This document shows positions 5,033-34,407 of a stretch of DNA of 64,000 bases, piece by piece. Positions within the stretch are counted from its first letter, which is position 1. The number at the start of each line of letters is the position of its first letter. The position numbers and the translations under genes are program-made. This stretch comes from an uncultured Gammaproteobacteria bacterium (GTDB taxonomy: Bacteria > Patescibacteriota > Microgenomatia > Daviesbacterales > UBA10151): the NCBI GenBank assembly GCA_964415615.1, contig CAYQAW010000002.1:1897-65896 (forward strand). The letters are read 5' to 3'. The notes beneath the pieces are model-generated. The model had not been told where the DNA came from and ran no database searches. It worked only from the letters and a program-made list of their open reading frames with translations.

Positions 5033-7087
5033 ATGATTGGAGCAGCAGATAGGTTTAGAGTGCTTTTTAAAAAGTATCGATTAAAATCTGAAATTTCTAC
5101 CCTTTCGCAGTTGGGCCGTTTGCTTGCTGAAAAAGGGTTTGTCTACGAAGATAGTATTTTTTCCCACTGGCAAAAGGGGACCAGGATTCCTCAAAACCGC
5201 ACAGTTATCTTGAAACTTCTTGAAATTTTCGTTGAACGGAAAGCTATTGATTCACTTAGTCAAGCTAATGAGCTTCTAGCATCAGCAAATCAAGGATATT
5301 TATCTGAAAAAGAGTTACAGAAAATTCCAATAAAACTTAGTAACCCAATATTTCAAGTTCCTAATGAGATTACTGATTTTCAAGGAAGAGAAAAAATTAT
5401 AGATGAACTTATTAATAAAAAGAACATTGAAGGAAAAATTATACTCATTCATGGCGCTGCCGGAGTGGGGAAGACAGCATTGGCAATAAAACTAGGTCAT
5501 CTTTTGAAAGATAGGTTTAAGGACGGGGTTTTATGGTACAAGGTTGAAGAAGATAATATCATGGATATTCTTCTTTCAATAGCGCATTTATTTGGTGAAG
5601 ATATAAGTAATATCAATAATTTACAAGTTAGAGCAACTATTGTTAGATCGTTGCTTGCTGCTAAAAATGTCTTACTCTTCCTTGATAGTGGTGAATTATA
5701 TGATGATATCCATTTACTGATACCTAATTCTCCAGTTTGTACAACTATTATTACATCTCAAAAAGGTCATTTGAAAACCCCGATTCGTTTTATAGATATT
5801 CAGTTAAATCCCTTTACTGACAGTGAGGTTTTATCTCTTTTTAAGGATATTTTAAAAGATAAATTTAAAAAAAATAGTCCAAATGATCTTCTTAAAGTTA
5901 CCAAGAAGGTGGAGAACCTGCCACTGGCTGTTCATATTTTGGCTAGACAGTTATTACATTCAAAACTTAGCGCTATTCAGTTTCCCAGTTTGCTTAGTAA
6001 TGAAAAGTCTGTTTTTCAAGATTTGTATTATGAAGATAAAAATTTATATGCAGCTATTGCTGCCAGTTATAACAAACTTGATAGTATAATGAAATCAGTT
6101 CTAGTATCTGCTTCTATATTTAAAGGAAAAGATTTTTCCCTCAAAACCATAGGGTATATAAATGGTCTTTCAATACCAGCTACAACCAAAACTCTACAAG
6201 ATCTGGTTGATCTTTCTCTTATTGAACATTCATTAAAAAATAGATACAGAATACATCCGGCAATAAAAGATTTTGTCCGAAACAAATTGGATTACCCTCG
6301 ATCATCATATTTAATGATTATTGCTATCTTCATATTTTCCTTTTTCGTCACATGGTGGGTTTTTCTTCAGCTGTTTATTGATAAAAATAACTTCATGTAC
6401 CATATTTTTTCAGCAACCTATGGTCTGATGGCGGTTTTTGGAGGAATCTGGGGAATCCATACCTCATTGAATTGGGGAGGTTTTAAAACACTTATTGGCA
6501 AAGCTATTTTTATGTTTTCATTGGGGTTTTTTGCACAAGTGTTTGGACAAATTGTTTATTCTTATTATTCTATTTTCCATCAGATAAAAGCACCGTATCC
6601 TTCTATTGGAGATATTGGTTATTTCGGTACAATCCCTTTTTACATATATGGAGTAATTTTGCTGGCAAAATCTTCAGGCATCAAGATTAATATTCAATCC
6701 TTCAAGAAGAAAATGATTGCTTTGGTAATTCCAATTATTATACTGACAATAGGTTATATTCTTTTCTTACGAAATTACACTTTTGATTGGAGTAATCCTT
6801 TGAAAGTTTTCCTGGATTTTGGGTATCCTTTCGGTGAAGCAATTTATATCTCTATTGCCATAATAACATTTATTTTTTCAAGAAATATCATGGATGGTAT
6901 TTTGAGGTCAAAAGCATTATTAGTATTGGTTGCGCTTGTTTTCCAATTTCTTGCTGACTATGTCTTTCTATATAACTCGAGCAGTTTTTATTCTGGAAAT
7001 TATATGGATTTTATTTATCTTACTGCTTATTTCGTAATGACAGTAGCACTCTTAAGTTTAAGGTCGCTTCATGTCAAGGTGTATTAA
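5033..7087 (+). CDS. Multidomain protein: N-terminal HTH-like region, NB-ARC/STAND-type P-loop NTPase, and a C-terminal polytopic membrane domain (about 250 aa, 6-7 TM).
   Basis: Walker A in the context ILIHGAAGVGKTALA. A hhhhD Walker B-like LLFLDSGE. A TTR-like ITSQK. The C-terminal domain is clearly paralogous to the stand-alone ORF 8341..9141; shared blocks are WGG(F/W), Y(Y/S)SI, PYPS(I/F)(G/A)D(I/A)GYF, VFLDFGYP(F/L)GE and FQFL(A/T)(D/E)Y. Confidence 0.7.
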   Translation: MIGAADRFRVLFKKYRLKSEISTLSQLGRLLAEKGFVYEDSIFSHWQKGTRIPQNRTVILKLLEIFVERKAIDSLSQANELLASANQGYLSEKELQKIPIKLSNPIFQVPNEITDFQGREKIIDELINKKNIEGKIILIHGAAGVGKTALAIKLGHLLKDRFKDGVLWYKVEEDNIMDILLSIAHLFGEDISNINNLQVRATIVRSLLAAKNVLLFLDSGELYDDIHLLIPNSPVCTTIITSQKGHLKTPIRFIDIQLNPFTDSEVLSLFKDILKDKFKKNSPNDLLKVTKKVENLPLAVHILARQLLHSKLSAIQFPSLLSNEKSVFQDLYYEDKNLYAAIAASYNKLDSIMKSVLVSASIFKGKDFSLKTIGYINGLSIPATTKTLQDLVDLSLIEHSLKNRYRIHPAIKDFVRNKLDYPRSSYLMIIAIFIFSFFVTWWVFLQLFIDKNNFMYHIFSATYGLMAVFGGIWGIHTSLNWGGFKTLIGKAIFMFSLGFFAQVFGQIVYSYYSIFHQIKAPYPSIGDIGYFGTIPFYIYGVILLAKSSGIKINIQSFKKKMIALVIPIIILTIGYILFLRNYTFDWSNPLKVFLDFGYPFGEAIYISIAIITFIFSRNIMDGILRSKALLVLVALVFQFLADYVFLYNSSSFYSGNYMDFIYLTAYFVMTVALLSLRSLHVKVY

Positions 7088-7506: not shown

Positions 7507-8295
7507 ATGCACAAAGTTGTAATTGAACCGGAATTCGAAAGCTTTGAGCCAAAACATTACTTGAAAGCTTATTATTCTAAAGTTGGTTCTGAAAATCTTA
7601 GTCTTTTGGAATTTTTCTCAAAGATTTATCAAGATATACCAAAAGGTTCAATTTTGCTTGAATTTGGAGGTGGGCCGACAATATATCCCTTAATAACTGC
7701 AGCTTCAAAAGTTAAAGCTATTCATTTTGCAGATTATTTAGATACAAATTTGGATGAAATTAGATTATGGAAGAATAATTCTGAAGAAGCTTTCAATTGG
7801 CGCAAATATTTCAAAAAAGCTCTATTCCTAGAAGGAAATAAAAGGGTGACAAAAAAACAGATTATTGCCAGAGAAAAATTGGTAAGAAAGAAAATTACGA
7901 GATTTTTACATTGTGATGCATTTAAAAAAGATCCAATAGATAAAAAATACCGGAATTTCTATGATATTATAAATACAAATTTTGTCACAGAGTCTATTAC
8001 AGATAATAAATATATTTGGGAAAGTCTGATTGCTAATGTTTGTTCAATGCTAACAAAAGATGGAATACTTATTATGACAGCAATTAAAGATGCAAAATAT
8101 TACCACGTTGGTAAAAAAACTTTTCCTGCTACCAGGATTATAGAAGAGGATATAATCCAAGTTTTAACAAAGCTGGGATTTGAGGAGACGAGTTTTTCTT
8201 CATACTCTATACCAGCTGAAGTTGAGGATGAACAGTTAGTCGGTTATACAGGATATAAAGGGATAATTTTCTTAAAGGCAAAAAATAGAGGTTAA
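7507..8295 (+). CDS. NNMT/PNMT/TEMT-family SAM-dependent small-molecule N-methyltransferase homolog.
   Basis: N-terminal FEPKHYLKAYYS parallels the family signature F-P-DYL--YY. It is followed by the SAM motif I in the context LLEFGGGPTIYPL (compare animal NNMT D-G-SGPTIYQL) and an acidic motif II context HFADYLDTNLDEI. Confidence 0.6.
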   Translation: MHKVVIEPEFESFEPKHYLKAYYSKVGSENLSLLEFFSKIYQDIPKGSILLEFGGGPTIYPLITAASKVKAIHFADYLDTNLDEIRLWKNNSEEAFNWRKYFKKALFLEGNKRVTKKQIIAREKLVRKKITRFLHCDAFKKDPIDKKYRNFYDIINTNFVTESITDNKYIWESLIANVCSMLTKDGILIMTAIKDAKYYHVGKKTFPATRIIEEDIIQVLTKLGFEETSFSSYSIPAEVEDEQLVGYTGYKGIIFLKAKNRG

Positions 8296-21673: not shown

Positions 21674-22345
21674 ATGCCTCACAGGTTTGTGGTTTTAGCC
21701 AATGATGAAATCTATCATGTATTTAACCGCTCTATTGCTGGGACAAACATATTTGCCCAAAATCAGAAGGTAAATTTAAATAAGGCTATAGAAATAGTAA
21801 ATTACTATCGATTTCCTCAAAAAATTAGATTATCTAGATTTAAAAGCCTTCCTGAGCAATTGAAGAAGCAATATTTAGATGCTCTAGGAGGTGTTATGCC
21901 CTTGGTTGAGATTTATGCTTTTGCTTTTATGTCAAACCATTTTCATTTTCTACTCAAACAGATTCGAGACAAAGGAGTTGCTATATTCCTTGCAAATTTC
22001 CAAAATAGCTTTGCTAAGGTATTTAATCTAAAAAATGATCGGAGTGGTGCTTTATTCCAAAATGCTTTTAAAGCCAAAAGAATTGTAACTGAGGAACAAT
22101 TTATCCATGTCTCGCGCTACATTCATTTAAACCCAGTCACTGCATATATCATTGAATTTGATAAGCTAGCAAGTTTTGAGTGGACTTCATATTCTGTATA
22201 TGCTGCAGATAAACAAATTCCTTTTATCAGTTCCATTTTCTTGCTAAAAATGTTTGGGACAAAGGAAAAGTATATTAAATTTGTTGCTGATCAGGTAGAT
22301 TATCAGAGAAAGTTGGCTTATATTAAAGATTTAATAATGGAATAA
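21674..22345 (+). mobile_element. IS200/IS605-family Y1 (HUH) transposase homolog of the RAYT type, flanked by REP-like hairpins.
   Basis: HUH motif in the context SNHFHFLLKQ. The catalytic Tyr region is near the C-terminus. Paralogous to ORF 58811..59458. Confidence 0.7.
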
Positions 22346-23963: not shown

Positions 23964-24746
23964 ATGAACCTAGGTTTGAATAAAAGACAGAAAATAGTCC
24001 TGACCTCGATCCTATTAACTATAGGGTTATTATCAACACAATTAGTTGATTTTAATTTAAGATTCAAATTTCTGGGGGGATTGGCACTTTTAACTTATGC
24101 TCTTTCCGTTTGGTCCCTCCGGGAAGGGTTAAATGTTTCCAAGGCTTTTGTACTGATGATTTTGCCAACTTTTTTTACTGCAGCTGTGGCCAGCTTTTAT
24201 TTTTTACTGCCAGTCAGGTGGCTTACCAGAGTACCGGTTGCATTTGTATTTGGTTTAACTTTCTACCTGTTGCTGCTGGCGCAGAATGTATTTAATGTAG
24301 CCAGTTTGAGAACAATACCTTTATATAGAGCTGCTTCAACAACAAGTTTTCTCTTTACACTGCTGTCAGCTTTTTTTATCTACCATGTAGTTTTTGCCTT
24401 TAACCTTTCATTTATCTGGAATGGGGTAGTGGTATTACTTATTAGTTTTCCCTTAATTTTGCAATTGTTTTGGGCAATTGAAATGGAGGATAAGATTCAA
24501 ACATCAATTATGGTTCAAAGTTTTATACTAAGTTTGGTCTTGGGAGAGTTAGCTTTGAGTTTTTCCTTTTGGCCTTCACCAATTACTATCAGAGCATTGT
24601 CTTTGTCATCAGCAATGTATGTTTTGCTGGGACTTTCCACACAGCATTTAAGAGGCAGGTTAAATAGGAGAGTAGTGTGGGAATATGTGGGAATAGGGGT
24701 AGTCATTTTCTTTGTGAGCTTATTTACTACATCCTGGAGTGGATAG
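23964..24746 (+). CDS. Polytopic membrane protein of unknown function (about 8 TM).
   Basis: Hydrophobicity pattern only. Confidence 0.45.
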   Translation: MNLGLNKRQKIVLTSILLTIGLLSTQLVDFNLRFKFLGGLALLTYALSVWSLREGLNVSKAFVLMILPTFFTAAVASFYFLLPVRWLTRVPVAFVFGLTFYLLLLAQNVFNVASLRTIPLYRAASTTSFLFTLLSAFFIYHVVFAFNLSFIWNGVVVLLISFPLILQLFWAIEMEDKIQTSIMVQSFILSLVLGELALSFSFWPSPITIRALSLSSAMYVLLGLSTQHLRGRLNRRVVWEYVGIGVVIFFVSLFTTSWSG

Positions 24747-25150
24747 CGTGAAAAAGGGGGAATATTTCGTGAAAAGAGTAGATGATATAGTATGGTATAG
24801 TTATAGGCATGAAGATATAAAACTATAGGATTAATTACGCTCAGTATTGGCATACATTGTGGATAAGTGCTAATTCTTCATACAATACCCGAAGGTACGC
24901 ACCGTCTGGTGCATACCAAAGTCACCATAGAGGAGAAGCACGCTGCATTGGCAGCATTTCGAGCTTACAAACTCTCGCTTCTCTTTTAGAAGAATGTTAG
25001 AATTCCCTTATCTGATGTCGCACAATGTTGGAATTTGGAATCTTGGCAGAGGAGACCTCATTTGGCTTGCTGGTTAAAATAATAAATTTAAAGAGCTAGG
25101 GTTAAAAAAGTCTTATGGTATATATTTTTGTGTTATTCCCATCCATAATT

Positions 25151-25235
25151 AGTTTATAGTTTATAGTTTATAGTTTATAGTTTATAGTTTATAGTTTTTA
25201 GTTTATTGTTTATATCTTAGGTTTGGGTTTATAGA
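25151..25235. repeat. Tandem 8-mer repeat (TTTATAGT, about 6 copies) with degenerate copies continuing downstream.
   Basis: Seen directly (agtttatagtttatagtttatag...). Not CRISPR-like: the unit is too short and there are no spacers. Confidence 0.7.
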
Positions 25236-25548
25236 ACAACCTAAACATTGGATGAGGAAATATAGCTCCCATCCCCCTGCAAGCCGTTTTTAGGCCCTTT
25301 ACGGGCTTCGTGCCTAAATAGCCTCAGAAGGTATAACAAGTCCAATTGTGAGTGTTATTTACAGGAAAAAAGAGGCTGGATGAGACTTGCACTCATCATG
25401 CCTAGCAAGAAATGCCTTCATAGTGTTAATAGTTTCACTTCGTAAGGATTCACCCACTGGTAATGATTTAACATTACTTCAACCCCTTAAATATTATATA
25501 GCTTATTGTTAATTTCATGCTTGACAATGTCTGCTTAGCCTTGGTATT

Positions 25549-26559
25549 ATGAGTATAATCAACCTAACGCTCATAATGTTAAGTTCAACCACTTCGTCCA
25601 AAAAGAAAATATCTTTACCTCTGTTTGACGAGTTTATGCTGCACCTGCAGATAAATAACTACTCTACTGAGACAATTTATAATTATGAACGGGATCTTCT
25701 CACATTTACCTATTTTCTTGAAAAAGAAATGCAAAAAGATTTTGATCAAATAGGTAAGTCAGATATAGAACATTATAAAGCTTATCTTCTGTCTACTGAC
25801 CGTAAAACTGCAATTTCAGAGGAGGATGCTTTAATTAAGTTGCAGAGTGGCTCTATGAATAGATTACTCTCCTCTCTTAGGAGTTATCTGAAGTTTCTTA
25901 TCTTTCAAGATTACAAGATTCCTATCCAGCCAGAACATATTAGAATGGTGAGAAAAGAAAATAAACACTACAAAGTAGCTGAGCTTCAAGAATTAACTTC
26001 CCTGATTGAGTCACCATCTGTTTTAGAAAAAGATCCTATTGTGGGGTCTCGGAACCGCGCTATGCTAGAAGTGCTTTTTGCAACAGGTATGAGAATTTCT
26101 GAACTTCTTTCCTTAAACAGAAGAGATATTGATCAAACAGGGAAGATTTTTATTATGGGTAAAGGCAAGAAGGAACGTTTTGTTTATCTTACAGAAAGAG
26201 CCAAGTCGTTGATTGACATGTATCTTTTACTGCGGAAGGATAATTTACCCGCACTATTTGTGCCTCAGAAGGGCAAAAGAATGGGAAAAAAAGATTGTCG
26301 TATCTCCCCTAACTATTTGCAGTTCAAGATTAAAAGTTATAGGGAAAAATTGGGAATTATTGTACCTACAAGCGCTCATTCACTTAGACATGGTTTTGCT
26401 ACATATTTGGCTGAGGAAGGGGCTTCCCCTGCTGCAATTCAGATTCTACTTGGTCATGAATCACTTAATACTACTACCAGATATGTAAATGCTTCAGATA
26501 AATTTGCTCAGGAAAGCCATAGGAAATATCACCCCTTATCTGAAGCAAATGACAAGTGA
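25549..26559 (+). CDS. Tyrosine site-specific recombinase (XerC/XerD/phage-integrase family), with an N-terminal core-binding (SAM-like) domain.
   Basis: The R..H..R...Y catalytic region is in the context HSLRHGFATYLAEEGASPAAIQILLGHESLNTTTRYV. A possible alternative start lies upstream. Confidence 0.8.
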   Translation: MSIINLTLIMLSSTTSSKKKISLPLFDEFMLHLQINNYSTETIYNYERDLLTFTYFLEKEMQKDFDQIGKSDIEHYKAYLLSTDRKTAISEEDALIKLQSGSMNRLLSSLRSYLKFLIFQDYKIPIQPEHIRMVRKENKHYKVAELQELTSLIESPSVLEKDPIVGSRNRAMLEVLFATGMRISELLSLNRRDIDQTGKIFIMGKGKKERFVYLTERAKSLIDMYLLLRKDNLPALFVPQKGKRMGKKDCRISPNYLQFKIKSYREKLGIIVPTSAHSLRHGFATYLAEEGASPAAIQILLGHESLNTTTRYVNASDKFAQESHRKYHPLSEANDK

Positions 26560-27045
26560 TGATTTTGAAAAGTACCTTGCTCTTCCTGCTACTAAGAAGG
26601 TGTTAATTCTACCCTATCCCCATTCAGCAGAAGTGAAAGTTTTTGAGTTTGCTGCCAATCCCCGTTTTTTTGAGTACATTAAACATAAACAAGCCTTTTT
26701 GAATCAGAAAAATGCAAAATTACGTTAATAAACTGCCTTCTATAAATATAAAGTGATTATTCGTTGTCGTACAATATATTTTCTTTTTGATTACTTCTGG
26801 AAACCCATTAAAATTATTTTCTAAAGCTTCTGCTGATCCTATTACCCCTGTTGCTGGACCAAATATAACTAAAAATGGGGATACTTGGAACACTACCAGT
26901 CCTACAGTAGAATTTGAACTTTGGTCTAATTTAGCTCCTGCTGCCCCATAATAAGGGTTGACTCCATTAAATCGGGGTTGACAAAGCTATCCTAAATGGT
27001 TAAGTTTAGATATACAGCCTTTTACATCAAGGGAGAGCTTTTAGA

Positions 27046-28281
27046 ATGAAAAAAAAGTTATTTTTTGTAGTGTTGATAGGATTTATTTTAGGTTCTATTT
27101 TTGTTTTACCATCTGGAGTAAAAGCTGATCCTGATTACAGTAGGTGTAATCAGTATGCTAATGGAGCTCATAATCCATCGCTTCCTAGTAACCAAAATTG
27201 TAATTGGAATTGGCGATATAACAATAGTAATCCTGCTGACGGATGCTATGGTGGTGAATGGTTAGGAGATTGTTCCTCCAGTGCTGCTCCAACAGCTGCT
27301 CCAACAGCTGCTCCAACAGCTGCTCCAACAGCTGTTCCAAGTTGTTCTGTGAGCTGGAATGTCGTCCCTGCAACAGTTGCTGCCAATACTGATTTTACCA
27401 TCAGTTTTACTCAAAGAACCAGTAATGTGGGATGGGATTATGGTAGTTTGTATTTGGATGGCACATATATAGATCATACTAAGGGGAAAATATGCGGGGT
27501 TACTCCCGGGGATACACTTGGCTGTCCTGACGGTGATGTTCAATTTGGAGCCTGGGGAGGCCTTAATTCAGGGGCAGCTGGTACTCATACTTTAACCTGG
27601 AAAGTGCCTAACCGTAATATTCCTGGAGTAACATTTAACAGCTCCCCTGCTACTACGTGTACTCCATCTGCTACTTTTGTTGTTCCAAGTTGTTCTGTTA
27701 CCTGGAATGTCCCTGCAACAGTTGCTGCCAATACTGATTTTACCATCAGTTTTACTCAAAGAACCAGTAATGTGGGATGGGATTATGGTAGTTTGTATTT
27801 GGATGGCACATATATAGATCATACTAAGGGGAAAATATGCGGGGTTACTCCCGGGGATACACTTGGCTGTCCTGACGGTGATGTTCAATTTGGAGCCTGG
27901 GGAGGCCTTAATTCAGGGGCAGCTGGTACTCATACTTTAACCTGGAAAGTGCCTAACCGTGGAGGAACTTGGGGAAGTACGTCTGCTACTACGTGTACTC
28001 CATCTGCTACTTTTGTTGTTCCAACAGCAACTCCAACAGCTGCTCCAACAGCTGCTCCAACAGCTGCTCCAACAGCAACTCCTGTTGCTTCCTGTAGTGT
28101 CAGTGGTGATATTGATGGCAATGGACGTATTGAACAGGCAGACTTTGATAAGTGGAAAAGCGCTTTTATTAATGGGAATTCTATTATAAATGTCCCTCCT
28201 GCTCTTAATAATTGCGCAGATGTGGCAGTAGATCTGGTGCTTTTTAACGCTTGGAGGAGCCAATCTGTAAGACTAAGATAA
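27046..28281 (+). CDS. Secreted repeat protein: signal peptide, (AAPT)n linkers, two near-identical tandem domains of about 115 aa, and a C-terminal dockerin-like calcium-loop module.
   Basis: Signal context VLPSGVKA. Linker APTAAPTAAPTAAPTA. Repeat A (27340-27684) and repeat B (27689-28022) are nearly identical at the nucleotide level. C-terminal motif GDIDGNGRIEQADFDKW fits the dockerin/EF-hand-like D-x-D-x-N-G-x-I-x-x-x-D loop. Confidence 0.6.
   Translation: MKKKLFFVVLIGFILGSIFVLPSGVKADPDYSRCNQYANGAHNPSLPSNQNCNWNWRYNNSNPADGCYGGEWLGDCSSSAAPTAAPTAAPTAAPTAVPSCSVSWNVVPATVAANTDFTISFTQRTSNVGWDYGSLYLDGTYIDHTKGKICGVTPGDTLGCPDGDVQFGAWGGLNSGAAGTHTLTWKVPNRNIPGVTFNSSPATTCTPSATFVVPSCSVTWNVPATVAANTDFTISFTQRTSNVGWDYGSLYLDGTYIDHTKGKICGVTPGDTLGCPDGDVQFGAWGGLNSGAAGTHTLTWKVPNRGGTWGSTSATTCTPSATFVVPTATPTAAPTAAPTAAPTATPVASCSVSGDIDGNGRIEQADFDKWKSAFINGNSIINVPPALNNCADVAVDLVLFNAWRSQSVRLR
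27340..28022 (+). repeat. Two tandem copies of a roughly 345-bp coding repeat, more than 95% identical.
   Basis: The stretches 27370-27600 and 27720-27950 read identically. Confidence 0.8.
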
Positions 28282-29795
28282 TGAATAACATAAAAGAGAG
28301 ATTAATTGATGTTAGGGATTTGCTGCAGGGGCATATCTTAGCCCTGATTATAATTTTAGTGATTGTGATTGGTATACCTATCACCTTTTATCTGGCCAAA
28401 CAACAACAGGATTTGCGGTCAAAAGCAACTGATGCTGGCCGTTTGGTATTTATACCACCTACCCCAACAGGATCTGTGAATATAAACAGCGCCTTTGATC
28501 TGGAGTTTGGCATTAATTTAAATCCGGCGGCGCGGATCACCGGAGCTGATGTAACTATTAGTTATACTAATAACCTGCGGCTGGATACTTTTTTGAAAGA
28601 TACGACTGTTTTACCGGAAGAGATCCTGAATAATAGCAATCCTGCTGTAAATCCTATAACTTTACATTATGTTGCTGTTAGTAAGAGTGGTGATTTGGCT
28701 TCCCGAACTTATGTTCCGTTAGGAAAGCTTACTTTTACAGCCATCAGCGCCGGGTCAGCAACAATTACTGTTATTACCAATCAGATTGTTGCTAAAGATC
28801 AACCAGGTACCCTGGCAATTGGAAATGCAACTACTACTTATACTGTTGCTGCCCGCGTTAATGGTGCCTGGTCTGTTTGGAGCGGAGGTACTTGTACTGT
28901 AACTTGTGATGGAGGTACTTTAACCGGAGAAACCAGGACATGTTATGCGCCTGCTGGTGGCGGAACAGAATGTACCAGGCTTGATAATACTCAGACCAAT
29001 TCTGAGAACTGGACTGATACCAGGTCGGGAGTGACAGCATGCAATACTCAAGCCTGTCCTGTTAATGGTGCCTGGTCTGCTTGGAGCGCTTGTTCAGCAA
29101 CAGCTTGTGGTACTTCTGGAACACAAACTAGAACATGTGATAATCCTTCACCATCAAATGGTGGGAGTGCCTGTACTGGGTCAGCTACCCAAGCTTGTGC
29201 TGCCTCTGCCTGTGCTGTTAATGGTGCCTGGTCTGCTTGGAGCGCTTGTTCAGCAACAGCTTGTGGTACTTCTGGAACACAAACTAGAACATGTGATAAT
29301 CCTTCACCATCAAATGGTGGGAGTGCCTGTACTGGGTCAGCTACCCAAGCTTGTGCTGCCTCTGCCTGTGCTGTTAATGGTGCCTGGTCTGCTTGGAGCG
29401 GAGGTACTTGTACTGTAACTTGTGGTGGAGGTACTCTAACCGGAGAAACCAGGACATGTTCTGCGCCTACTGGTGGCGGAACAGAATGTACCATGCTTGA
29501 TAATAGGACGCTGACTACTCCTACCAACCGGACTGAAACCAGGTCGGCAGTGACAGCATGCAATACTCAAGCCTGTCCCTGTATTAATGGGGATACTATA
29601 GGTGGTAACTCATGTGTGAGCATTGATGACTATAATACCTGGTATAGTGAATTCACAGGAGCAGTTACTACAAAAACAGCTGATTTTTATTCAGTATGTA
29701 ATAGTAGTAACCAAAAAGGAGATGGGGTGATTGATATTAATGATTATAATATTTGGCGCAGGGAATTTGATGCCAACAGTCACCGATGTACGTAA
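28281..29795 (+). CDS. Membrane-anchored surface protein: signal-anchor, cohesin-like domain, five thrombospondin type-1-like (TSP1) repeats, and a C-terminal dockerin-like module.
   Basis: Probable start is the ATG in TAATG overlapping the upstream stop. TM helix ILALIIILVIVIGIPITFYLA. Cohesin-like pattern ITGADVTISYTNNLRLDT...GKLTFTAISAGSATITV. TSP1 repeats of the form WS-WS...CS-TCG-G-Q-R-R-C...GG--C-G...C. C-terminal dockerin-like context DGVIDINDYNIWRREF. Confidence 0.65.
   Translation: MNNIKERLIDVRDLLQGHILALIIILVIVIGIPITFYLAKQQQDLRSKATDAGRLVFIPPTPTGSVNINSAFDLEFGINLNPAARITGADVTISYTNNLRLDTFLKDTTVLPEEILNNSNPAVNPITLHYVAVSKSGDLASRTYVPLGKLTFTAISAGSATITVITNQIVAKDQPGTLAIGNATTTYTVAARVNGAWSVWSGGTCTVTCDGGTLTGETRTCYAPAGGGTECTRLDNTQTNSENWTDTRSGVTACNTQACPVNGAWSAWSACSATACGTSGTQTRTCDNPSPSNGGSACTGSATQACAASACAVNGAWSAWSACSATACGTSGTQTRTCDNPSPSNGGSACTGSATQACAASACAVNGAWSAWSGGTCTVTCGGGTLTGETRTCSAPTGGGTECTMLDNRTLTTPTNRTETRSAVTACNTQACPCINGDTIGGNSCVSIDDYNTWYSEFTGAVTTKTADFYSVCNSSNQKGDGVIDINDYNIWRREFDANSHRCT
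28857..29580 (+). repeat. Five tandem TSP1-like coding repeats; the central two (about 174 bp each, roughly 29044-29391) are nucleotide-identical.
   Basis: Seen in sequence. The antisense ORFs over this span are repeat artefacts. Confidence 0.8.
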
Positions 29796-29798
29796 AAT

Positions 29799-31643
29799 AT
29801 GAAAGAATTTTTAGATTTATTTAGAAACAAAAAACATCTGATTAGTCTTCTCCTTTTGGGGATATTAATTATAGCCCTCCCTTTGGGAATAAAATTAGTC
29901 AGCCAACAAAAGATTATTCAATCCAGAGCTACCAATCCTCCAATTGTATTTAAAGGAAATAATGTAGTTCAAAGAAACGGGCAATGGATAGCTATAAAGC
30001 CTCAAATTTCTTTAGAACTTACTTCTGCTTTAGGCGCTCCGGCATCCACGCCGGTTCCTGGTGCCAGTTCAAGCCCTTCTTCTAGTCCTAGCCTTGCTCC
30101 TAGCCCGAGTTCTAATCCAAATACTGGAGATGTATATTTCCTGTTGGATCCGATCCAAGCTTCTAAAACAACGGGAGATAGTTTTAATGTTACTCTTAAG
30201 CTCAATGCGTCAACTTTTAATATTTCAGCGCTAGATATAACGGTAAATTTTGATAAGGACAAGCTGGAGCTTATAAACTTTGTACCAGCCTCTGATAGCC
30301 ATATTGATTCAGTAATTAATGAAAAAAATAACCTGTCTGGTTATTTCCATTTCGTAGGAGTAAGATCACCAGCTACTAATCGGGTTTCCGGTGAAGTTAA
30401 CTTAGGTACTATTCAACTAAAAGCAAAAAATGTAGAAGGTATTGCTCAGATTACTTTTGGCAATACCCGGATTACATCTTCTGATAGAAGTGATCCTTTA
30501 ACAATTAGCAATAATCAAGGGGGTAGTTATTCTATTTTGAATATTGCTTCCGCTACTTCTTACCGGATTGCTGAAAATCCGACAGATTTAGCTGCGGCTG
30601 CTTGGGAAAATTATAATGCTGAACCAACTTTACGGGACTATGAATTTAGAGATAAAAGTCCGGGAGTAAAGACTATTTTTGTCGAATTTAAAGATTCTCA
30701 CCAAAAAACAGGTGGCTGCGGAGTAAATAACTCTCAGCCATGCCAAGTTCAAATTAGGCTTTTAGGTGATTTTGCGATCGGAAGTTGTGCTTTGAGTTTT
30801 GAAGGAAATAATGCTGTCTTGAATTTAAGAGGACAAAATTTCGGATTAACCAGGGGTGAGATCAAAAGCGGAGATACAGACTTGCAGGTTAGAGAATGGA
30901 AAGATAAGAATATTAAAGCAGTTTGGCAGGATGCGCCAGTTGGGCAAGTATTGCCGGTGTCTGTAACAAATACAGATGGCCAAGTTGCTGAAAGCCAATG
31001 TAGCGCTATCTCGCAGCTTTCAGTTGGGGCTAAATTTTTCTGTGGCCAGTCTTCTTCCAGCGCAGTTAATAATATTGATTTGAGTTTAGCTGGGGTATTT
31101 GAGGGAGGCACAAAGATCAAACAAAAAGTTAGCATTGCCACAGATGGTATTATCCAGGGATTAAATCAAAAATTAGAGGAAGGCAAGAATTATAAAGTAT
31201 CTTTAAAGGGGCCTAAATCGCTCCGCAGGACTGCAGAATTTACAGCAGGCAATGGCACTACCAATGTTACTGATTTTGTTTTACCTGTTGGAGATATTTT
31301 CCCGGTTACCAATGGAGATGGCGTAATTAATAATTTTGACCATTCAGAATTGGTCCGCCAGTGGATTATTTCTGTAGATGCTACTGGGAGATCAGCAGAT
31401 TTTAATGGTGACGGCAGGGTTAATTCCATTGACTGGGCTTGTATGAGGCATGATTTTGGCTCCTCAGATGATTCAGAACCAGCTGCTGGTGGTCCTGCAG
31501 CTGCTCCATCTGCCAGCCCAAGTCCTGTTGCTTCTGACGCTTCCGCTTCTAGTCCAAGTCCTAGTCCAAGTCCTTCTGCTACTCTAAATACTGGAGTTGG
31601 CAGTACAGCAGGCAGTACTGGAATTGGTAGTACAGCCCGTTAA
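29799..31643 (+). CDS. Large surface protein: N-terminal TM anchor, Ser/Pro linker, cohesin-like domain, central beta-rich region, tandem dockerin-like calcium-loop pair, Ser/Pro/Ala-rich tail.
   Basis: TM helix LISLLLLGILIIALPLGIKLV. Cohesin-like pattern FNVTLKLNASTFNISALDITVNFDKDKLELINF...VNLGTIQLKAKNVEGIAQITF. Dockerin-like pair VTNGDGVINNFDHSELVRQWI and DFNGDGRVNSIDWACMRHDF. Confidence 0.6.
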   Translation: MKEFLDLFRNKKHLISLLLLGILIIALPLGIKLVSQQKIIQSRATNPPIVFKGNNVVQRNGQWIAIKPQISLELTSALGAPASTPVPGASSSPSSSPSLAPSPSSNPNTGDVYFLLDPIQASKTTGDSFNVTLKLNASTFNISALDITVNFDKDKLELINFVPASDSHIDSVINEKNNLSGYFHFVGVRSPATNRVSGEVNLGTIQLKAKNVEGIAQITFGNTRITSSDRSDPLTISNNQGGSYSILNIASATSYRIAENPTDLAAAAWENYNAEPTLRDYEFRDKSPGVKTIFVEFKDSHQKTGGCGVNNSQPCQVQIRLLGDFAIGSCALSFEGNNAVLNLRGQNFGLTRGEIKSGDTDLQVREWKDKNIKAVWQDAPVGQVLPVSVTNTDGQVAESQCSAISQLSVGAKFFCGQSSSSAVNNIDLSLAGVFEGGTKIKQKVSIATDGIIQGLNQKLEEGKNYKVSLKGPKSLRRTAEFTAGNGTTNVTDFVLPVGDIFPVTNGDGVINNFDHSELVRQWIISVDATGRSADFNGDGRVNSIDWACMRHDFGSSDDSEPAAGGPAAAPSASPSPVASDASASSPSPSPSPSATLNTGVGSTAGSTGIGSTAR

Positions 31644-31663
31644 GTTTGTGATACACTAAAAAA

Positions 31664-32299
31664 ATGGATAGTTTAAACGTATACGTAAATAATCAAACAA
31701 ATAATCAGACAGGACCGCAGAAAATTAAAAGCTTTTTTACTGTCCCCAAGATTATTTTCGCGGTTTTAGGAATCGTTATTTTGGTAGAAGTGATATTTGT
31801 TGTTAAGTCTTTAACTTCACCTGCTTCTCCTCTGCCTCAGGTTAGTGATCAGGCAGGTGTTATTTCAACTATTTCTAAAATTTCTTTAAGCGCTTCTAAA
31901 ACGAACTTGAATGTTGGGCAGATGATACCAGTTGAGTTAAGAGTAGATACAGGGGGAAAATCCATTTCTGGAGCTGATTTGATAATCCGCTTTGATCCCC
32001 AAGTTTTAGAGGCATCAGGGACTGCAATCATCAAAGGAAAAATATTTGATGAATACCCCCTGGTATCTGTGGATGCAAAAAATGGTTTGATTTCAATTTC
32101 AGGGGTCAGTAGTATAAATAAAAGTTTTAAAGGTTCTGGACAATTTGCTTTGATAAATTTTAAGGCAAAAATCCCTGGCAAAACATCTTTAACAGTTGAT
32201 TTTAAGAAAGGTTCAACAACTGCTTCTAATTTGGTGGAAGCTGCTACTTCAAAAAATATTTTGGATAATGTTGATAATTTAGAGCTTGAAATACAATGA
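31664..32299 (+). CDS. Membrane-anchored single cohesin-like domain protein.
   Basis: N-terminal TM helix. Cohesin-like pattern VELRVDTGGKSISGADLIIRFDPQVLEASG...GSGQFALINFKAKIPGKTSLTVDF. Confidence 0.5.
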   Translation: MDSLNVYVNNQTNNQTGPQKIKSFFTVPKIIFAVLGIVILVEVIFVVKSLTSPASPLPQVSDQAGVISTISKISLSASKTNLNVGQMIPVELRVDTGGKSISGADLIIRFDPQVLEASGTAIIKGKIFDEYPLVSVDAKNGLISISGVSSINKSFKGSGQFALINFKAKIPGKTSLTVDFKKGSTTASNLVEAATSKNILDNVDNLELEIQ

Positions 32300-33042
32300 A
32301 AAGAATTCTGCCATTTATTTTTACTTTTTACTTTTTACTTGTTACTTTACCTTCTGCTGCTTTTGCTGAGTCAGCCACTTTATCTCTAGATCCATCTAGC
32401 GGCACATTTAATTCTGGTTGTACTTTTTCCCTGAACGTTAACCTTGATACTGGTGGAGTTCAAACAGATGGTGCGGATGCTATTTTAGTTTATGATACTG
32501 CTAAGTTTACTGCTACTTCTATAACTAAAGGTACAATTTACCCGGATTATCCTGGGAATAATATTGATGCTGCAAGCGGTAAAATTACTATTTCAGGTTT
32601 GGCTTCTGTCAGTACTCCTTTTTCCGGTAAAGGCATCCTGGCTACAATAAATTTTACAGTTGTTACAGAGGCTCCTGCAGGAGTGACTCAGATGACCTTT
32701 GATTTTGATCCAAATGATAAAGCAAAAACTACAGATTCCAATGTTGTTGAGCGTGGTACAGTAACAGATATATTAAATTCTGTAGTTAATGGCAGCTATA
32801 CAATTGGGACTGGAACATGCGGGCAGAATAATACAGTAGTCTCTACTTCTAGACCCTCTACTTCTAGACCAGTTGGAGCAATAGATATATCTACTCCTTC
32901 AGCTACCCTTGCGCCAACATATATACCTGTTCCTGTCAGGAAAACTTTGCCTGAGGGAGGAACTCAAGAAGTTACTTTTGCCATAGCTATTGTAGGTGGG
33001 ATTTTGACTGTATTGGGAATTTTAGGACTGGCGCTTTTGTAA
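32296..33042 (+). CDS. Secreted cohesin-like domain protein with (STSRP)2 linker and a C-terminal LPEGG motif followed by a hydrophobic anchor.
   Basis: Signal peptide context LPSAAFA. Cohesin-like pattern FSLNVNLDTGGVQTDGADAILVYDTAKFTATSI...GKGILATINFTVV...MTFDF. C-terminus KTLPEGGTQEVTFAIAIVGGILTVLGILGLALL. Confidence 0.5.
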   Translation: MKRILPFIFTFYFLLVTLPSAAFAESATLSLDPSSGTFNSGCTFSLNVNLDTGGVQTDGADAILVYDTAKFTATSITKGTIYPDYPGNNIDAASGKITISGLASVSTPFSGKGILATINFTVVTEAPAGVTQMTFDFDPNDKAKTTDSNVVERGTVTDILNSVVNGSYTIGTGTCGQNNTVVSTSRPSTSRPVGAIDISTPSATLAPTYIPVPVRKTLPEGGTQEVTFAIAIVGGILTVLGILGLALL

Positions 33043-33043
33043 G

Positions 33044-33925
33044 ATGACTCTTTCTGCTCTAATAACTGATTTTCTGGAATACCTTGAACTTGAACGTAAT
33101 GCTGCTCAGCCTACTATTAGAAATTATGATCATTATCTAAAACGCTTCGTAGAATTTGCAACAGATATAAACCCAGAAGATATAGATTTAAATTTAGTGA
33201 GAAAGTACAGGCTTTATTTATCAAGATGGATAGATCCTAAAACTCAAAAATCTTTAAAAAGAGTGACCCAAAATTATTTTATGATAGCTCTGAGGGCATT
33301 TTTAAGATATCTAGCCAAATCAGATATTTCAACTTTGTCTCCTGAAAAAGTTGAGCTTGGAGAAACTGATCCTAAGTCTTTAAAAGTTTTAGAGAAAGAC
33401 AAGCTTCAATTTCTGCTTGAGGCTCCTGATTGTACCACAAAAGATGGGTTGCGTGATAGAGCAATTCTGGAAACTTTATTTTCCACAGGTCTTAGGGTAT
33501 CTGAACTAGCTTCTTTAAATAGGGATACCATTAATTTACAAAGAAAGGAATTTGGGATTGTTGGAAAAGGAGGAAAAGAAAGAATGGTGTTTATTTCAGA
33601 TCCTGCAGCAGATTGTATAGAGATGTATTTAAACGCCCGTAAAGATACTTTTAAACCCCTTTTTATTAGATTCCAAGGTACTGTAAATCCTGAAAATGAA
33701 GGCGAGACAATGAGACTTACTCCCCGCTCGATTGAAAGGACTGTAGAAAAATATGTTAAGGCTTTGGGATTTTCTGTAAAAGCCACTCCGCACACCCTCC
33801 GCCACTGCTTTGCTACAGATTTACTCATAAATGGAGTTGATATCCGTTCAGTTCAAGAGATGCTGGGTCATTCTAATATCTCCACAACTCAAATTTACAC
33901 TCATGTTACCAATACACTAAAGTAA
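33044..33925 (+). CDS. Tyrosine recombinase, XerC/XerD-like.
   Basis: Catalytic region in the context HTLRHCFATDLLINGVDIRSVQEMLGHSNISTTQIYTHV. An N-terminal SAM-like core-binding domain. Confidence 0.8.
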   Translation: MTLSALITDFLEYLELERNAAQPTIRNYDHYLKRFVEFATDINPEDIDLNLVRKYRLYLSRWIDPKTQKSLKRVTQNYFMIALRAFLRYLAKSDISTLSPEKVELGETDPKSLKVLEKDKLQFLLEAPDCTTKDGLRDRAILETLFSTGLRVSELASLNRDTINLQRKEFGIVGKGGKERMVFISDPAADCIEMYLNARKDTFKPLFIRFQGTVNPENEGETMRLTPRSIERTVEKYVKALGFSVKATPHTLRHCFATDLLINGVDIRSVQEMLGHSNISTTQIYTHVTNTLK

Positions 33926-34407
33926 TGGACTACAAGCGAAGGAAATTTATCGTAAAAACAGTGGTTTTTACCTTAAGCTTAATTATTGCTTGGTATTTGA
34001 TTAGAAATGGCTTGCTGGATGGTTTGCCAGCCTCCCCTATTTTAGCAGGGATGTTCTATGCTTCTTTCTTAACCTCCCCTATTTCACTAGCCATGCTGGT
34101 GGTGTTGGCAAAAACTAATAATCCTGTCAGTTTAGCATTGCTTGCAGGAGTAGGAGCAGCTTTGGCAGATCTTTTGATAGTGAAGCTGTTTAGGCAAGCT
34201 GTAGCCTTGAAGATGCGGCCGGAAAAAACTAGTTTTCCCCACATCATCCTGGGCGCAATTATCATTGCCTCTCCCCTGCCAGATGAATTAGGTTTGATGA
34301 TGTTGGGGGTATCTAAGTTGAAATACTATCAAATTGCAATTTTGACTTATGTATTAAATACTGCCGGAATACTTTTGATTATTGTACCTGTTAGTATATT
34401 TATATGA
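33925..34407 (+). CDS. Small polytopic membrane protein.
   Basis: Hydrophobicity pattern. Start and stop overlap the neighbouring genes. Confidence 0.4.
   Translation: MDYKRRKFIVKTVVFTLSLIIAWYLIRNGLLDGLPASPILAGMFYASFLTSPISLAMLVVLAKTNNPVSLALLAGVGAALADLLIVKLFRQAVALKMRPEKTSFPHIILGAIIIASPLPDELGLMMLGVSKLKYYQIAILTYVLNTAGILLIIVPVSIFI

Follow-up and report, generated by a model that had tools for sequence, protein, structure and literature searches.

A putative enzyme-free cohesin-dockerin display locus conserved in Candidatus Daviesbacteria

Cohesin and dockerin modules have been described in cellulosomes, such as that of Acetivibrio (Clostridium) thermocellum, and also outside cellulose degradation. 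The cohesin-dockerin pair of Archaeoglobus fulgidus is cited as functional (PMC12484212), and such modules are also present in the GH84 toxin complexes of Clostridium perfringens (2w1n, 2jh2). In deep groundwater, proteins with cohesins and dockerins were detected by metaproteomics in Candidatus Shapirobacterales (Microgenomates) and read as a cellulosome (bioRxiv 10.1101/2021.08.21.457207; also PMC9123182). In the present study, a locus carrying both modules was analysed in a 64,000-nt stretch of contig CAYQAW010000002.1 (assembly GCA_964415615.1, positions 1,897 to 65,896 of the forward strand), which as a whole is called the window below. Five consecutive genes, named pA, pB, pC, pD and pE (Table 1), lie there between the genes of two Xer-like tyrosine recombinases, Xer1 and Xer2. 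Candidate Phyla Radiation (CPR) bacteria are ultra-small, mostly uncultured and probably episymbiotic, and their attachment to partners is largely obscure beyond type IV pili. We regard it as reasonably probable that the locus is a vertically inherited, non-cellulosomal and enzyme-free cohesin-dockerin display system of Candidatus Daviesbacteria, anchored in the membrane, in which we infer that the dockerins bind the cohesins.

By their profiles, the five proteins appear to hold four cohesins or cohesin-like modules (on pB, pC, pD and pE) and three dockerins of two subtypes, a C-type on pC and an A-type on pA and pB. The Pfam gathering cut-offs are 24.1 bits for Cohesin (PF00963), 22.9 for Dockerin_1 (PF00404) and 21.6 for TSP_1 (PF00090). 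The cohesins of pC, pD and pE score above the first of these, with 28.4, 38.1 and 43.1 bits, respectively, and the module of pB stays below it (15.0 bits, E 0.03). With a hidden Markov model (HMM) built from the pD and pE orthologues of other genomes only, the pB module scores 13.7 bits (per-sequence p ~2e-6), and hhalign of a pB-type alignment against the pD/pE-type cohesin profile gave 94.6% (E 6.6e-8, 100 columns). An earlier note on this DNA, made from the letters alone, had called cohesin-like segments by eye in four of the proteins, and all four are borne out, three by Pfam and that of pB by profile-profile comparison. The cohesin region in the AlphaFold2 (AF2) model of pC, where the predicted local distance difference test (pLDDT) is only 55-80, matches 5nrk_A, 4uyp_C and 6kge_A with TM-scores of 0.64-0.73 and root-mean-square deviations of ~3.2-3.5 A. 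The AF2 model of pB, made from a 23-sequence alignment, has a mean pLDDT of 56 and falls below 50 in its cohesin and dockerin regions, where it is unusable for confirming the fold.

The dockerin of pC reaches 33.7 bits with Pfam Dockerin_1 and has two loops (NGDGVINNFD..., NGDGRVNSID...). The C-termini of pA and pB have no Pfam match, also when searched as isolated segments, and an HMM from pC orthologues only does not recognise the dockerin of pA (4.8 bits) or of pB (1.5 bits). Their homology emerged only through the profile of the pA-type family. A full HMMER scan with pA through 1.84 billion representative proteins returned only 44 relatives, mostly via residues ~310-408, and these share the C-terminal module on otherwise unrelated proteins. 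The consensus of the pA-type relatives is a canonical two-loop dockerin (GDxDGNGxVxxxDFxxW...DxNxDGxVDLxDFNxWR), and 18 of the 32 database homologues recruited through the pA C-terminus are positive for Dockerin_1. By hhalign, the pA-type dockerin matches the pC-type at 96.9% (E 1.8e-10) and the pB dockerin matches the pA-type at 98.7%; the direct comparison of pB with the pC-type is weak (19%). The pB dockerin also meets the NCBIfam model dockerin_GC at E 0.026. Of the calcium loops, the first of pA is canonical (DIDGNGRIEQAD) and the second degenerate, and pB has one degenerate and one canonical loop (KGDGVIDINDYN). The earlier note had three proteins ending in dockerin-like calcium loops, with a tandem pair in pC. 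The tandem pair stands by Pfam and the modules of pA and pB stand as divergent dockerins by hhalign; the position in pC does not, since a 57-aa Ser/Pro-rich tail follows its dockerin.

The pC protein joins both modules in one chain. Its AF2 model (mean pLDDT 79) is well resolved in the small beta module (~94), the beta-sandwich domains (>90) and the dockerin (~90), and the best Foldseek match is the Coh9-X-DocII fragment of CipA (3kcp_A, 4fl4; E 5e-10), with single cohesins (TM-scores 0.63-0.73) also among the top matches; cohesin-like modules of C. perfringens are also among the structural matches. As a single query, the middle region of pC has no Pfam match, and its beta-sandwich domains are TIG domains in relatives. 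Across the family as a whole, conservation covers the leader and, after a middle part that varies, the C-terminal ~300 aa with the three beta domains and the dockerin.

Eighty species-level genome loci were fetched with Xer2 as anchor and 10-kb flanks (~20 kb per relative), and the window proteins were mapped onto them by tblastn, followed by open reading frame (ORF) calling and locus-derived HMMs; single loci carry the prefix L below. The triad of a dockerin protein, pD and pE was found in 49 complete Daviesbacteria loci. The dockerin protein is a BLAST-labelled pC orthologue in 45 of them and an unlabelled protein with a pC-type dockerin in the other four, and a pD orthologue was found in 50 loci. 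Exactly one C-type dockerin together with pD and pE is present in 37 loci. Additional dockerins occur in 12 loci, which include all eight with additional cohesins. An extra dockerin thus accompanies the extra cohesin in 8/8 loci, and an extra cohesin is present in 0/37 loci that lack an extra dockerin (Fisher p 1e-6, uncorrected for phylogeny). The extra cohesin is that of a duplicated pD (L039), lies within a second pC-like protein (L043, L050, L052, L054) or is on pB and/or pC (the window, L004, L022). Four apparent exceptions have an extra dockerin with no extra cohesin above threshold; in two of these, L029 and L032, the extra dockerin is of the A-type. The pC homologue has a sub-threshold N-terminal Cohesin match in L032 (E 0.011) and in L022 (E 0.0028), and in L029 it is cohesin-like by eye only. 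A-type dockerins therefore tend to occur where pC carries a cohesin.

Across 45 loci and with Xer2 divergence controlled, the divergence of the pC-type dockerin tracks that of the pD cohesin (partial Mantel r 0.42, p 0.0005) and does not track that of the pE cohesin (partial Mantel 0.13, p 0.12). The correlation with Xer2 divergence is -0.02 for the dockerin and 0.44 for the pE cohesin. The idea of the earlier note that these proteins assemble on one another is plausible and is strengthened by the co-expansion, the co-variation of dockerin and pD, and the CipA-like cohesin-X-dockerin model of pC.

From these observations the following arrangement can be proposed. The core, present in every sampled genome of the lineage, would consist of pC as a secreted protein with a two-loop dockerin, pD as a type II membrane protein and pE with a C-terminal transmembrane helix. 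After export through its family-specific leader, pC would dock with its dockerin, in a calcium-dependent way, on the cohesin of pD at the outer face of the membrane. In the genome of the window, the core would be extended by extra cohesins on pC and pB and by A-type dockerins on pA and pB; the cohesins of pC and pB would receive the A-type dockerins of pB and pA, respectively, and the resulting chain would run membrane-pD-pC-pB-pA. Such a chain would display Ig-like/TIG spacers, four thrombospondin-type repeats (TSRs) and an orphan beta domain, and pE would be a second conserved docking point outside the assigned pairs. Both the displayed domains and the enzyme-free content make adhesion the likely role, with a host or partner cell, or a matrix, as possible targets.

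Table 1. Features of the cohesin-dockerin locus and its flanks (window positions).
Feature	Position	Strand	Description
Imperfect palindrome	25545-25578	+	ATTATGAGTATAA-TCAACC-TAACGCTCATAAT; core GAGTATAA-N6-TTAYACTC, extendable to 13-6-13
Xer1	25576-26559	+	Xer-like tyrosine recombinase, 327 aa
178-aa-gene remnant	26549-26728	+	In-frame internal deletion; MTSDDF and last 54 residues kept
Leader/N-module gene remnant	26787-26951	+	54 aa, dockerin-protein family; transmembrane part of leader gone
pA	27046-28281	+	Signal peptide, Cys-rich N-module, two orphan ~115-aa beta domains, Pro/Thr/Ala linkers, A-type dockerin
pA dockerin	28099-28263	+	aa 352-406, putative A-type
pB	28281-29795	+	Leader/transmembrane segment, cohesin-like module (nt 28434-28835), four TSP1 repeats (nt ~28857-29576), putative A-type dockerin (nt 29583-29777)
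pC	29799-31643	+	Leader/transmembrane segment (aa 11-41), small beta N-module (aa 49-74), cohesin (aa 112-246, nt 30132-30536), three beta-sandwich domains (aa 250-490), C-type dockerin (aa 495-557, nt 31281-31469), disordered tail
pD	31664-32299	+	N-terminal transmembrane anchor, one cohesin (aa 71-200, nt 31874-32263)
pE	32296-33042	+	Signal peptide, one cohesin (aa 26-160, nt 32371-32775), linker, C-terminal transmembrane helix (nt ~32956-33039) after LPEGG
Xer2	33044-33925	+	Xer-like tyrosine recombinase, 293 aa; stop overlaps start of next gene (33925-34407)

Several points weigh against an assembly of this kind. The co-occurrence test rests on perhaps five independent lineages or events, and the co-variation could come from the co-inheritance of adjacent genes and not from a physical interface. 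Cohesins outnumber dockerins by one in nearly all loci, so that at least pE has no partner within the locus. The dockerins of pA and pB fail Pfam and have one degenerate calcium loop apiece, and the pB model is of low confidence in the regions of its two modules (pLDDT <50). In addition, the leader may be cleaved after S-R/K-A, a site that fits the -3/-1 rule; if it is uncleaved, pB and pC would themselves be membrane-anchored.

The surplus cohesin and the degenerate dockerins would also suit modules that share no more than the fold of cohesins and dockerins, without pairing, and that serve as generic Ig-like stalks and as calcium-dependent EF-hand stabilisers or ligand binders of independent envelope proteins; identities of only 12-20% to cellulosomal modules in the structural matches point the same way. 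Against this account, extra cohesins and extra dockerins expand together, the dockerin co-varies specifically with the adjacent cohesin, and pC reproduces the cohesin-X-dockerin arrangement of scaffoldins. Moreover, the tested non-cellulosomal cohesin-dockerin pairs, those of A. fulgidus and C. perfringens, do bind. We consider a likeness in fold alone to be unlikely.

The anchored display system also has to be set against a possible enzymatic function. No catalytic domain, including any glycoside hydrolase, was found by Pfam in pA to pE, in agreement with the earlier note, which had seen no glycoside hydrolases. The locus could nevertheless be the anchoring half of an enzyme-displaying, cellulosome-like system, in which pD and pE, especially pE with no partner in the locus, would bind hydrolases or proteases that bear dockerins and have their genes at other places in the genome. 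Database proteins with A-type dockerins do include subtilases, a papain-family protease, CBM4_9 and an apiosidase-like domain, and the cohesin and dockerin proteins of Candidatus Shapirobacterales were read as a cellulosome. Against it, besides the lack of a catalytic domain in the five proteins, the precomputed Pfam annotations of 38 pC-family homologues hold no glycoside hydrolase or protease, no other dockerin was found in the 64-kb window, and the locus has no multi-cohesin scaffoldin, cellulose-binding CBM or SLH domain. Enzyme display is quite improbable in our judgement; it would be compatible with the membrane-anchored display system proposed here and does not exclude it.

A further reading, offered only tentatively and with some doubt, is that an episymbiotic CPR bacterium has here a lineage-specific attachment organelle with the triad at its core. 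The two anchored cohesins would then be universal sockets into which rapidly diversifying, dockerin-tagged adhesins, including those with animal-type thrombospondin repeats, plug. These adhesins would use the family-specific leader and would set the specificity for the host or partner. As the divergence of the dockerin is uncorrelated with that of Xer2, the cassette of cargo plus pD appears to evolve independently of the genome backbone, and such a pattern would be consistent with antigenic or host-range diversification.

In pB, the TSRs are recognised by Pfam TSP_1 (59.5 bits, E 3.6e-16) and match the repeats of human thrombospondin-1 in the PDB (3r6b, E 5.7e-17), which confirms the TSP1 repeats named in the earlier note. 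They are canonical, with the WxxW motif and six Cys, and the motifs WSAWSACSATACGTSGTQTRTC... are legible. Three pB homologues with 77-83% identity (P0160, P0161, P0162) have one TSR, compared with four in pB. In pA, Pfam finds only a PT repeat, and the repeated beta domain has no match. Both genes contain near-perfect repeats at the DNA level: a direct repeat of 252 nt in pA is 100% identical (27364-27615 / 27709-27960), and a tandem pair of 156 nt in pB is 99% identical (29052-29363). These are recent intragenic duplications or, possibly, products of assembly collapse or expansion. TSP1 repeats, usually seen as an adhesion domain of animals and apicomplexans, also occur in many metagenomic prokaryotic proteins (P0191, P0196, P0228, P0262, P0265), for example on pseudopilins, and some are joined to prepilin-type N-termini; P0265 and P0262 combine them with the leader shared by the cargo genes of this locus and with a cohesin and/or dockerin.

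The C-terminal helix of pE (..LTFTLAIVGSVLTVLGILGLALL), which ends the protein, is kept in 51/52 orthologues. The earlier note had pointed to LPEGG followed by a hydrophobic tail. Both are present, yet they do not form a conserved sortase signal: LPxxG is found in 28/52 orthologues and a basic residue within the last 8 aa in 1/52. A sortase signal was rejected on account of this poor conservation of motif and basic tail, the missing Thr in LPEGG and the absence of any match to NCBIfam anchor models. What ends pE is a transmembrane anchor and not a sortase signal of the classical kind.

Of the genes between DUF5656/Xer1 and pD, nearly all have in common an N-terminal leader of the form ..KKNLI..LLL.ILILAIPLGV.LV.QQQI.KSRA.. 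(in the window at 28281-28430 and 29799-29930), and in many of them it is followed by the small beta module PI.F.G.NV....G.WVA.KP.I.LELTSPLGPP. Searched with a regular expression, 1.2 Mb of loci had the leader in 77 ORFs, and 75 of these lay inside the cohesin-dockerin locus (L004-L069). The leader has no match among NCBIfam or Pfam signal models and may serve as a signal dedicated to export or processing. A remnant of one such gene precedes pA (Table 1); its translation ...LFSKASADPITPVAGPNITKNGDTWNTTSPTVEFELWSNLAPAAP parallels ...SRATNPPIVFKGNNVVQRNGQWIAIKPQISLELTSALGAP of pC and 90-120-aa ORFs in relatives, where intact versions of this leader/N-module gene are present (L014:3515-3796, L012:5421-5693).

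The position of the cluster is highly conserved. A pE orthologue lies directly upstream of Xer2 in 55/55 Daviesbacteria loci that reach this position, with gaps mostly of -4 to +80 nt. RuvC and DUF5656 are found upstream in these genomes, and a 160-aa membrane protein, an ATPase and gyrA downstream. In 20 outgroup loci, including records labelled Gottesmanbacteria, Woesebacteria and Woykebacteria, Xer2 is present and the cohesin genes are absent. The outgroup order is DUF5656-Xer1-(178-aa gene)-Xer2 with the recombinases on the same strand; they are 0.4 kb apart in L108 and separated by one gene in L136 and by two in L073. The cohesin cluster has thus probably lain between the two recombinases since the base of Daviesbacteria and been inherited vertically. 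The variable part is the cargo side, which evolves fast by repeat duplication, gene gain or loss and pseudogenisation; orthologues of pA and pB were found only in the closest relative, L004.

The earlier note had taken the two flanking recombinases as a sign of mobility or of site-specific rearrangement of the locus; as an island, it would be delimited by the two enzymes, which would move or invert it. Apart from the two enzymes of the same family, this could draw on the presence of Xer1 at the position in only 12/36 relatives, on the conserved palindromic candidate core site at the Xer1 start, on the outgroups that have no cluster between the Xer genes, so that it must have been inserted there once, and on the highly variable cargo. 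However, in the comparison with related genomes the cluster was syntenic in all 55 Daviesbacteria loci that reach the position, an outcome that the earlier note itself had set against mobility. Its recombinases are widespread; Xer2 is present throughout the lineage, and the identity of pE tracks that of Xer2 (rho 0.43). The flanks hold no bracketing pair of repeats or core sites: between 24.7 and 34.5 kb only intragenic repeats were found, with the best inverted pairs at chance level, and the only Xer1 palindrome has no counterpart near 33 kb, where the gap between pE and Xer2 is 1 nt. ARAGORN found no tRNA or tmRNA in the window, and scans of viral contigs with Xer1 and pE found no relatives.

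Base composition agrees with this. The overall GC content is 0.40-0.45 in pA, pB and pC, 0.34 in pD and 0.39 in pE, against ~0.36 in neighbouring genes. At the second codon position it is 0.46-0.60 in pA, pB, pC and pE, compared with ~0.36 in the neighbours, so that the excess GC at 27-32 kb lies entirely at this position and reflects proteins rich in Ala, Gly, Pro and Thr. GC at the third codon position (GC3) is 0.20-0.29 in pA to pE and 0.24-0.40 in the flanking genes. A foreign origin suggested by the GC content was rejected because GC3 is not deviant. We give a mobile island very little credence. That reading is largely refuted: the recombinases do not mobilise the cluster, and its position reflects ancient synteny.

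Xer1 and Xer2 both match Pfam Phage_integrase (E 1.4e-30 and 6e-40, respectively) and have SAM-like N-domains (Phage_int_SAM). They share 34% identity, and the catalytic residues R..K..HxxR..H..Y are legible in each. All NCBIfam scores lie below the equivalog cut-offs: Xer2 reaches 225.5 bits with XerC (cut-off 335), 221.4 with XerD (329.6) and 212.7 with XerA (220), and Xer1 reaches 180.8, 175.6 and 172.7 bits, respectively. The ORF and recombinase family given for Xer1 in the earlier note hold; its start at 25549 is probably nine codons early, and 25576 is preferred. The ATG at 25576 is conserved across Xer1 orthologues, and the public protein collection contains the 327-aa product and not the 336-aa form that starts at 25549. 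Xer2 had 333 genome matches, with 52-85% identity across Microgenomates and neighbouring groups (66-85% within Daviesbacteria) and conserved synteny. Xer1 has at least 546 metagenome relatives, which frequently stand behind YebC-(RuvC)-DUF5656, and it follows DUF5656 in 12/36 Daviesbacteria-type loci. Judging from this distribution and from the outgroup order, Xer1 and Xer2 form an ancient, conserved and widespread pair of Xer-type paralogues, and Xer2 is a conserved housekeeping-type gene, not an island integrase.

Both recombinases show peculiarities of their own. Xer2 ends ..THVTNTLK at 293 aa, and its orthologues of ~305 aa end ..THVTNAHLKDVHKAFHSGNK; at the overlap with the next gene (33925-34407), Xer2 has a different sequence in place of the 12 C-terminal residues that follow the catalytic Tyr. 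In clusters at 90% identity, Xer1 has 33 members from different Daviesbacteria and Xer2 has one. The identity of Xer1 to its relatives does not track that of Xer2 (rho -0.26, n=14), as in L066 with 92% for Xer1 and only 67% for Xer2. This pattern suggests that constraint is very strong or that genomes exchange the xer1 module.

According to an alignment of Xer1 upstream regions, the palindrome (Table 1) overlaps the -10 box and the start codon of Xer1. With up to three mismatches allowed, its core was found in both orientations, just upstream of ~70/94 Xer1 orthologues in the fetched loci and at 13 other places. In about a dozen orthologues its orientation is opposite to that of xer1 (e.g. GAGTATTAGAGATATTATACTC), and the window has a single copy. 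It looks like a candidate Xer1 binding or core site, or an operator, that travels with xer1. It is probably not a dif site at the replication terminus, since the cumulative GC skew keeps rising through 25.5 kb, with no sign switch.

A companion gene of 178 aa follows Xer1 intact in several relatives (L005, L013-L016, L020, L021, L039, L073). In the window only a remnant of it is left (Table 1), in which tblastn against the 178-aa orthologues matched only residues 1-8 and 125-178, with 63-80% identity to the seven closest orthologues and 49-56% to L015 and L039. The family has no Pfam match; by eye, its motifs ..GES..HLALK.. and ..EYPLIGFEVDVID..ECGDTNALKLEKYL look like those of a PD-(D/E)xK-type nuclease.

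The seven ORFs from Xer1 to Xer2 are all on the + strand and span 25.5-33.9 kb of the window, and the coordinates given in the earlier note were verified apart from the Xer1 start. The window is core chromosome of Candidatus Daviesbacteria (CPR, Microgenomates), as it contains the housekeeping genes for TGT, YebC, RuvC, gyrA, gyrB, Mur ligases, Ddl and Alr; the named Xer2 homologues belong to Candidatus Daviesbacteria or Microgenomates. A P-type ATPase and the type IV pilus genes PilB/T/C are also present. Gene spacing is tight from pA to the ATPase, where no terminator-like site outscores the background from shuffled sequences, and TTGACA-18-TATTAT at 25521-25550 is the best promoter-like site of the region.

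Downstream of the DUF5656 gene, two non-coding blocks (25216-25336 and 24764-24877) are conserved with 70-85% identity in ~20 Daviesbacteria genomes, including those without Xer1. Their features are a hairpin with covariation (TTTRGGGCTTT..AAGCCCTAAA) and a CCGTTTT box that is invariant (consensus AGCCGTTTTTRGGGC), and between them lies a 7-nt tandem repeat, TAGTTTA, in ~8-10 copies (25150-25226). Rfam gave nothing in the whole window at gathering thresholds and nothing in 24650-27100 at E<=1. For the block at 25216-25331, the RNAalifold consensus was only weak (-4.9 kcal/mol) and had a single compensatory pair, on a MAFFT alignment that mis-registers the inner stem. The blocks may represent an undescribed small RNA or a 3'UTR element. 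Elsewhere in the window, an ORF at 21674-22345 is related to IS200-like Y1 transposases (Pfam Y1_Tnp E 2.8e-4, below threshold); its homologues stand at varying positions and orientations around the locus in seven relatives (L005, L007, L012, L018, L021, L035, L040), which suggests a mobile or REP-associated element. A methyltransferase of the NNMT/PNMT/TEMT family, mostly known from animals (7507-8295, E 4e-41), adjoins an NB-ARC/STAND-type ATPase (5033-7087, E 2e-12), and the two together are unusual content for a CPR genome.

The presence of cohesin and dockerin domains in the Microgenomates supergroup is not new. In the literature on these domains in CPR, Patescibacteria and Daviesbacteria, the only mention found was the domain-level one for Shapirobacterales, and no description was found of the triad, the two dockerin subtypes, the co-expansion, the shared leader, the transmembrane anchoring or the TSR cargo. 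As a minimal and enzyme-free cohesin-dockerin system with two anchors, two dockerin subtypes and exchangeable cargo, the locus is a concrete candidate for CPR attachment, and its modules are small (60-140 aa). It also corrects a likely mis-reading, in which cohesin and dockerin matches in CPR genomes are scored as cellulose degradation in metagenomic surveys. If the pairing is true, the locus would offer orthogonal cohesin-dockerin pairs for the engineering of protein assemblies, and it would show, in a natural case, how adaptors can be chained step by step through the joint addition of cohesins and dockerins.

Among described systems, the recombinases resemble the chromosome-dimer resolvases XerC/XerD and single-recombinase modules such as XerS/difSL in being two conserved, widespread and syntenic paralogous tyrosine recombinases whose best NCBIfam matches are XerC, XerD and XerA. 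As with Xer1, xerS has its palindromic site, difSL, immediately upstream. The recombinases differ from these systems in their scores below the equivalog cut-offs, in a GC skew without sign switch at the locus and in the absence of Xer1 from its position in two thirds of the relatives; no dif site was identified. The four canonical TSRs of pB are shared with the adhesins thrombospondin-1, properdin, UNC5 and the apicomplexan TRAP family, and TSRs mediate adhesion in animals and parasites (PMC3417536). In contrast to these, pB is bacterial, its TSRs are fused to a cohesin and a dockerin, and their copy number varies from 1 to 4 among homologues.

As in A. fulgidus and in the GH84 toxin complexes of C. 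perfringens, the modules of this locus stand outside cellulose degradation. Those systems are isolated pairs on enzymes or single proteins, whereas here an operon-like triad is found throughout a lineage, with two dockerin subtypes and no enzymes. Candidatus Shapirobacterales belong to the same CPR supergroup and express such genes in situ, but they were reported as domain matches only, without locus organisation, anchoring, stoichiometry or cargo. In function, the locus stands closest to such non-cellulosomal pairs and to the anchoring and adaptor end of cellulosomes, as in A. thermocellum. In pC, as in CipA Coh9-X-DocII bound to the SdbA cohesin (3kcp, 4fl4), a single chain holds a cohesin, X-type modules that are Ig-like and, at the C-terminus, a two-loop dockerin; pD and pE correspond in role to the single-cohesin anchoring proteins SdbA, OlpB and Orf2p; and pB and pC, like adaptor scaffoldins, have cohesin and dockerin in one protein. 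Unlike the cellulosome, the locus has at most one cohesin per protein, no multi-cohesin scaffoldin, no match to CBM3 or another CBM and no hydrolase cargo. Its anchors are transmembrane helices, N-terminal in pD and C-terminal in pE, instead of SLH domains or sortase signals, its host is a CPR bacterium with a tiny genome, and what it displays as cargo are TSP1 repeats, TIG/Ig-like domains and orphan domains.

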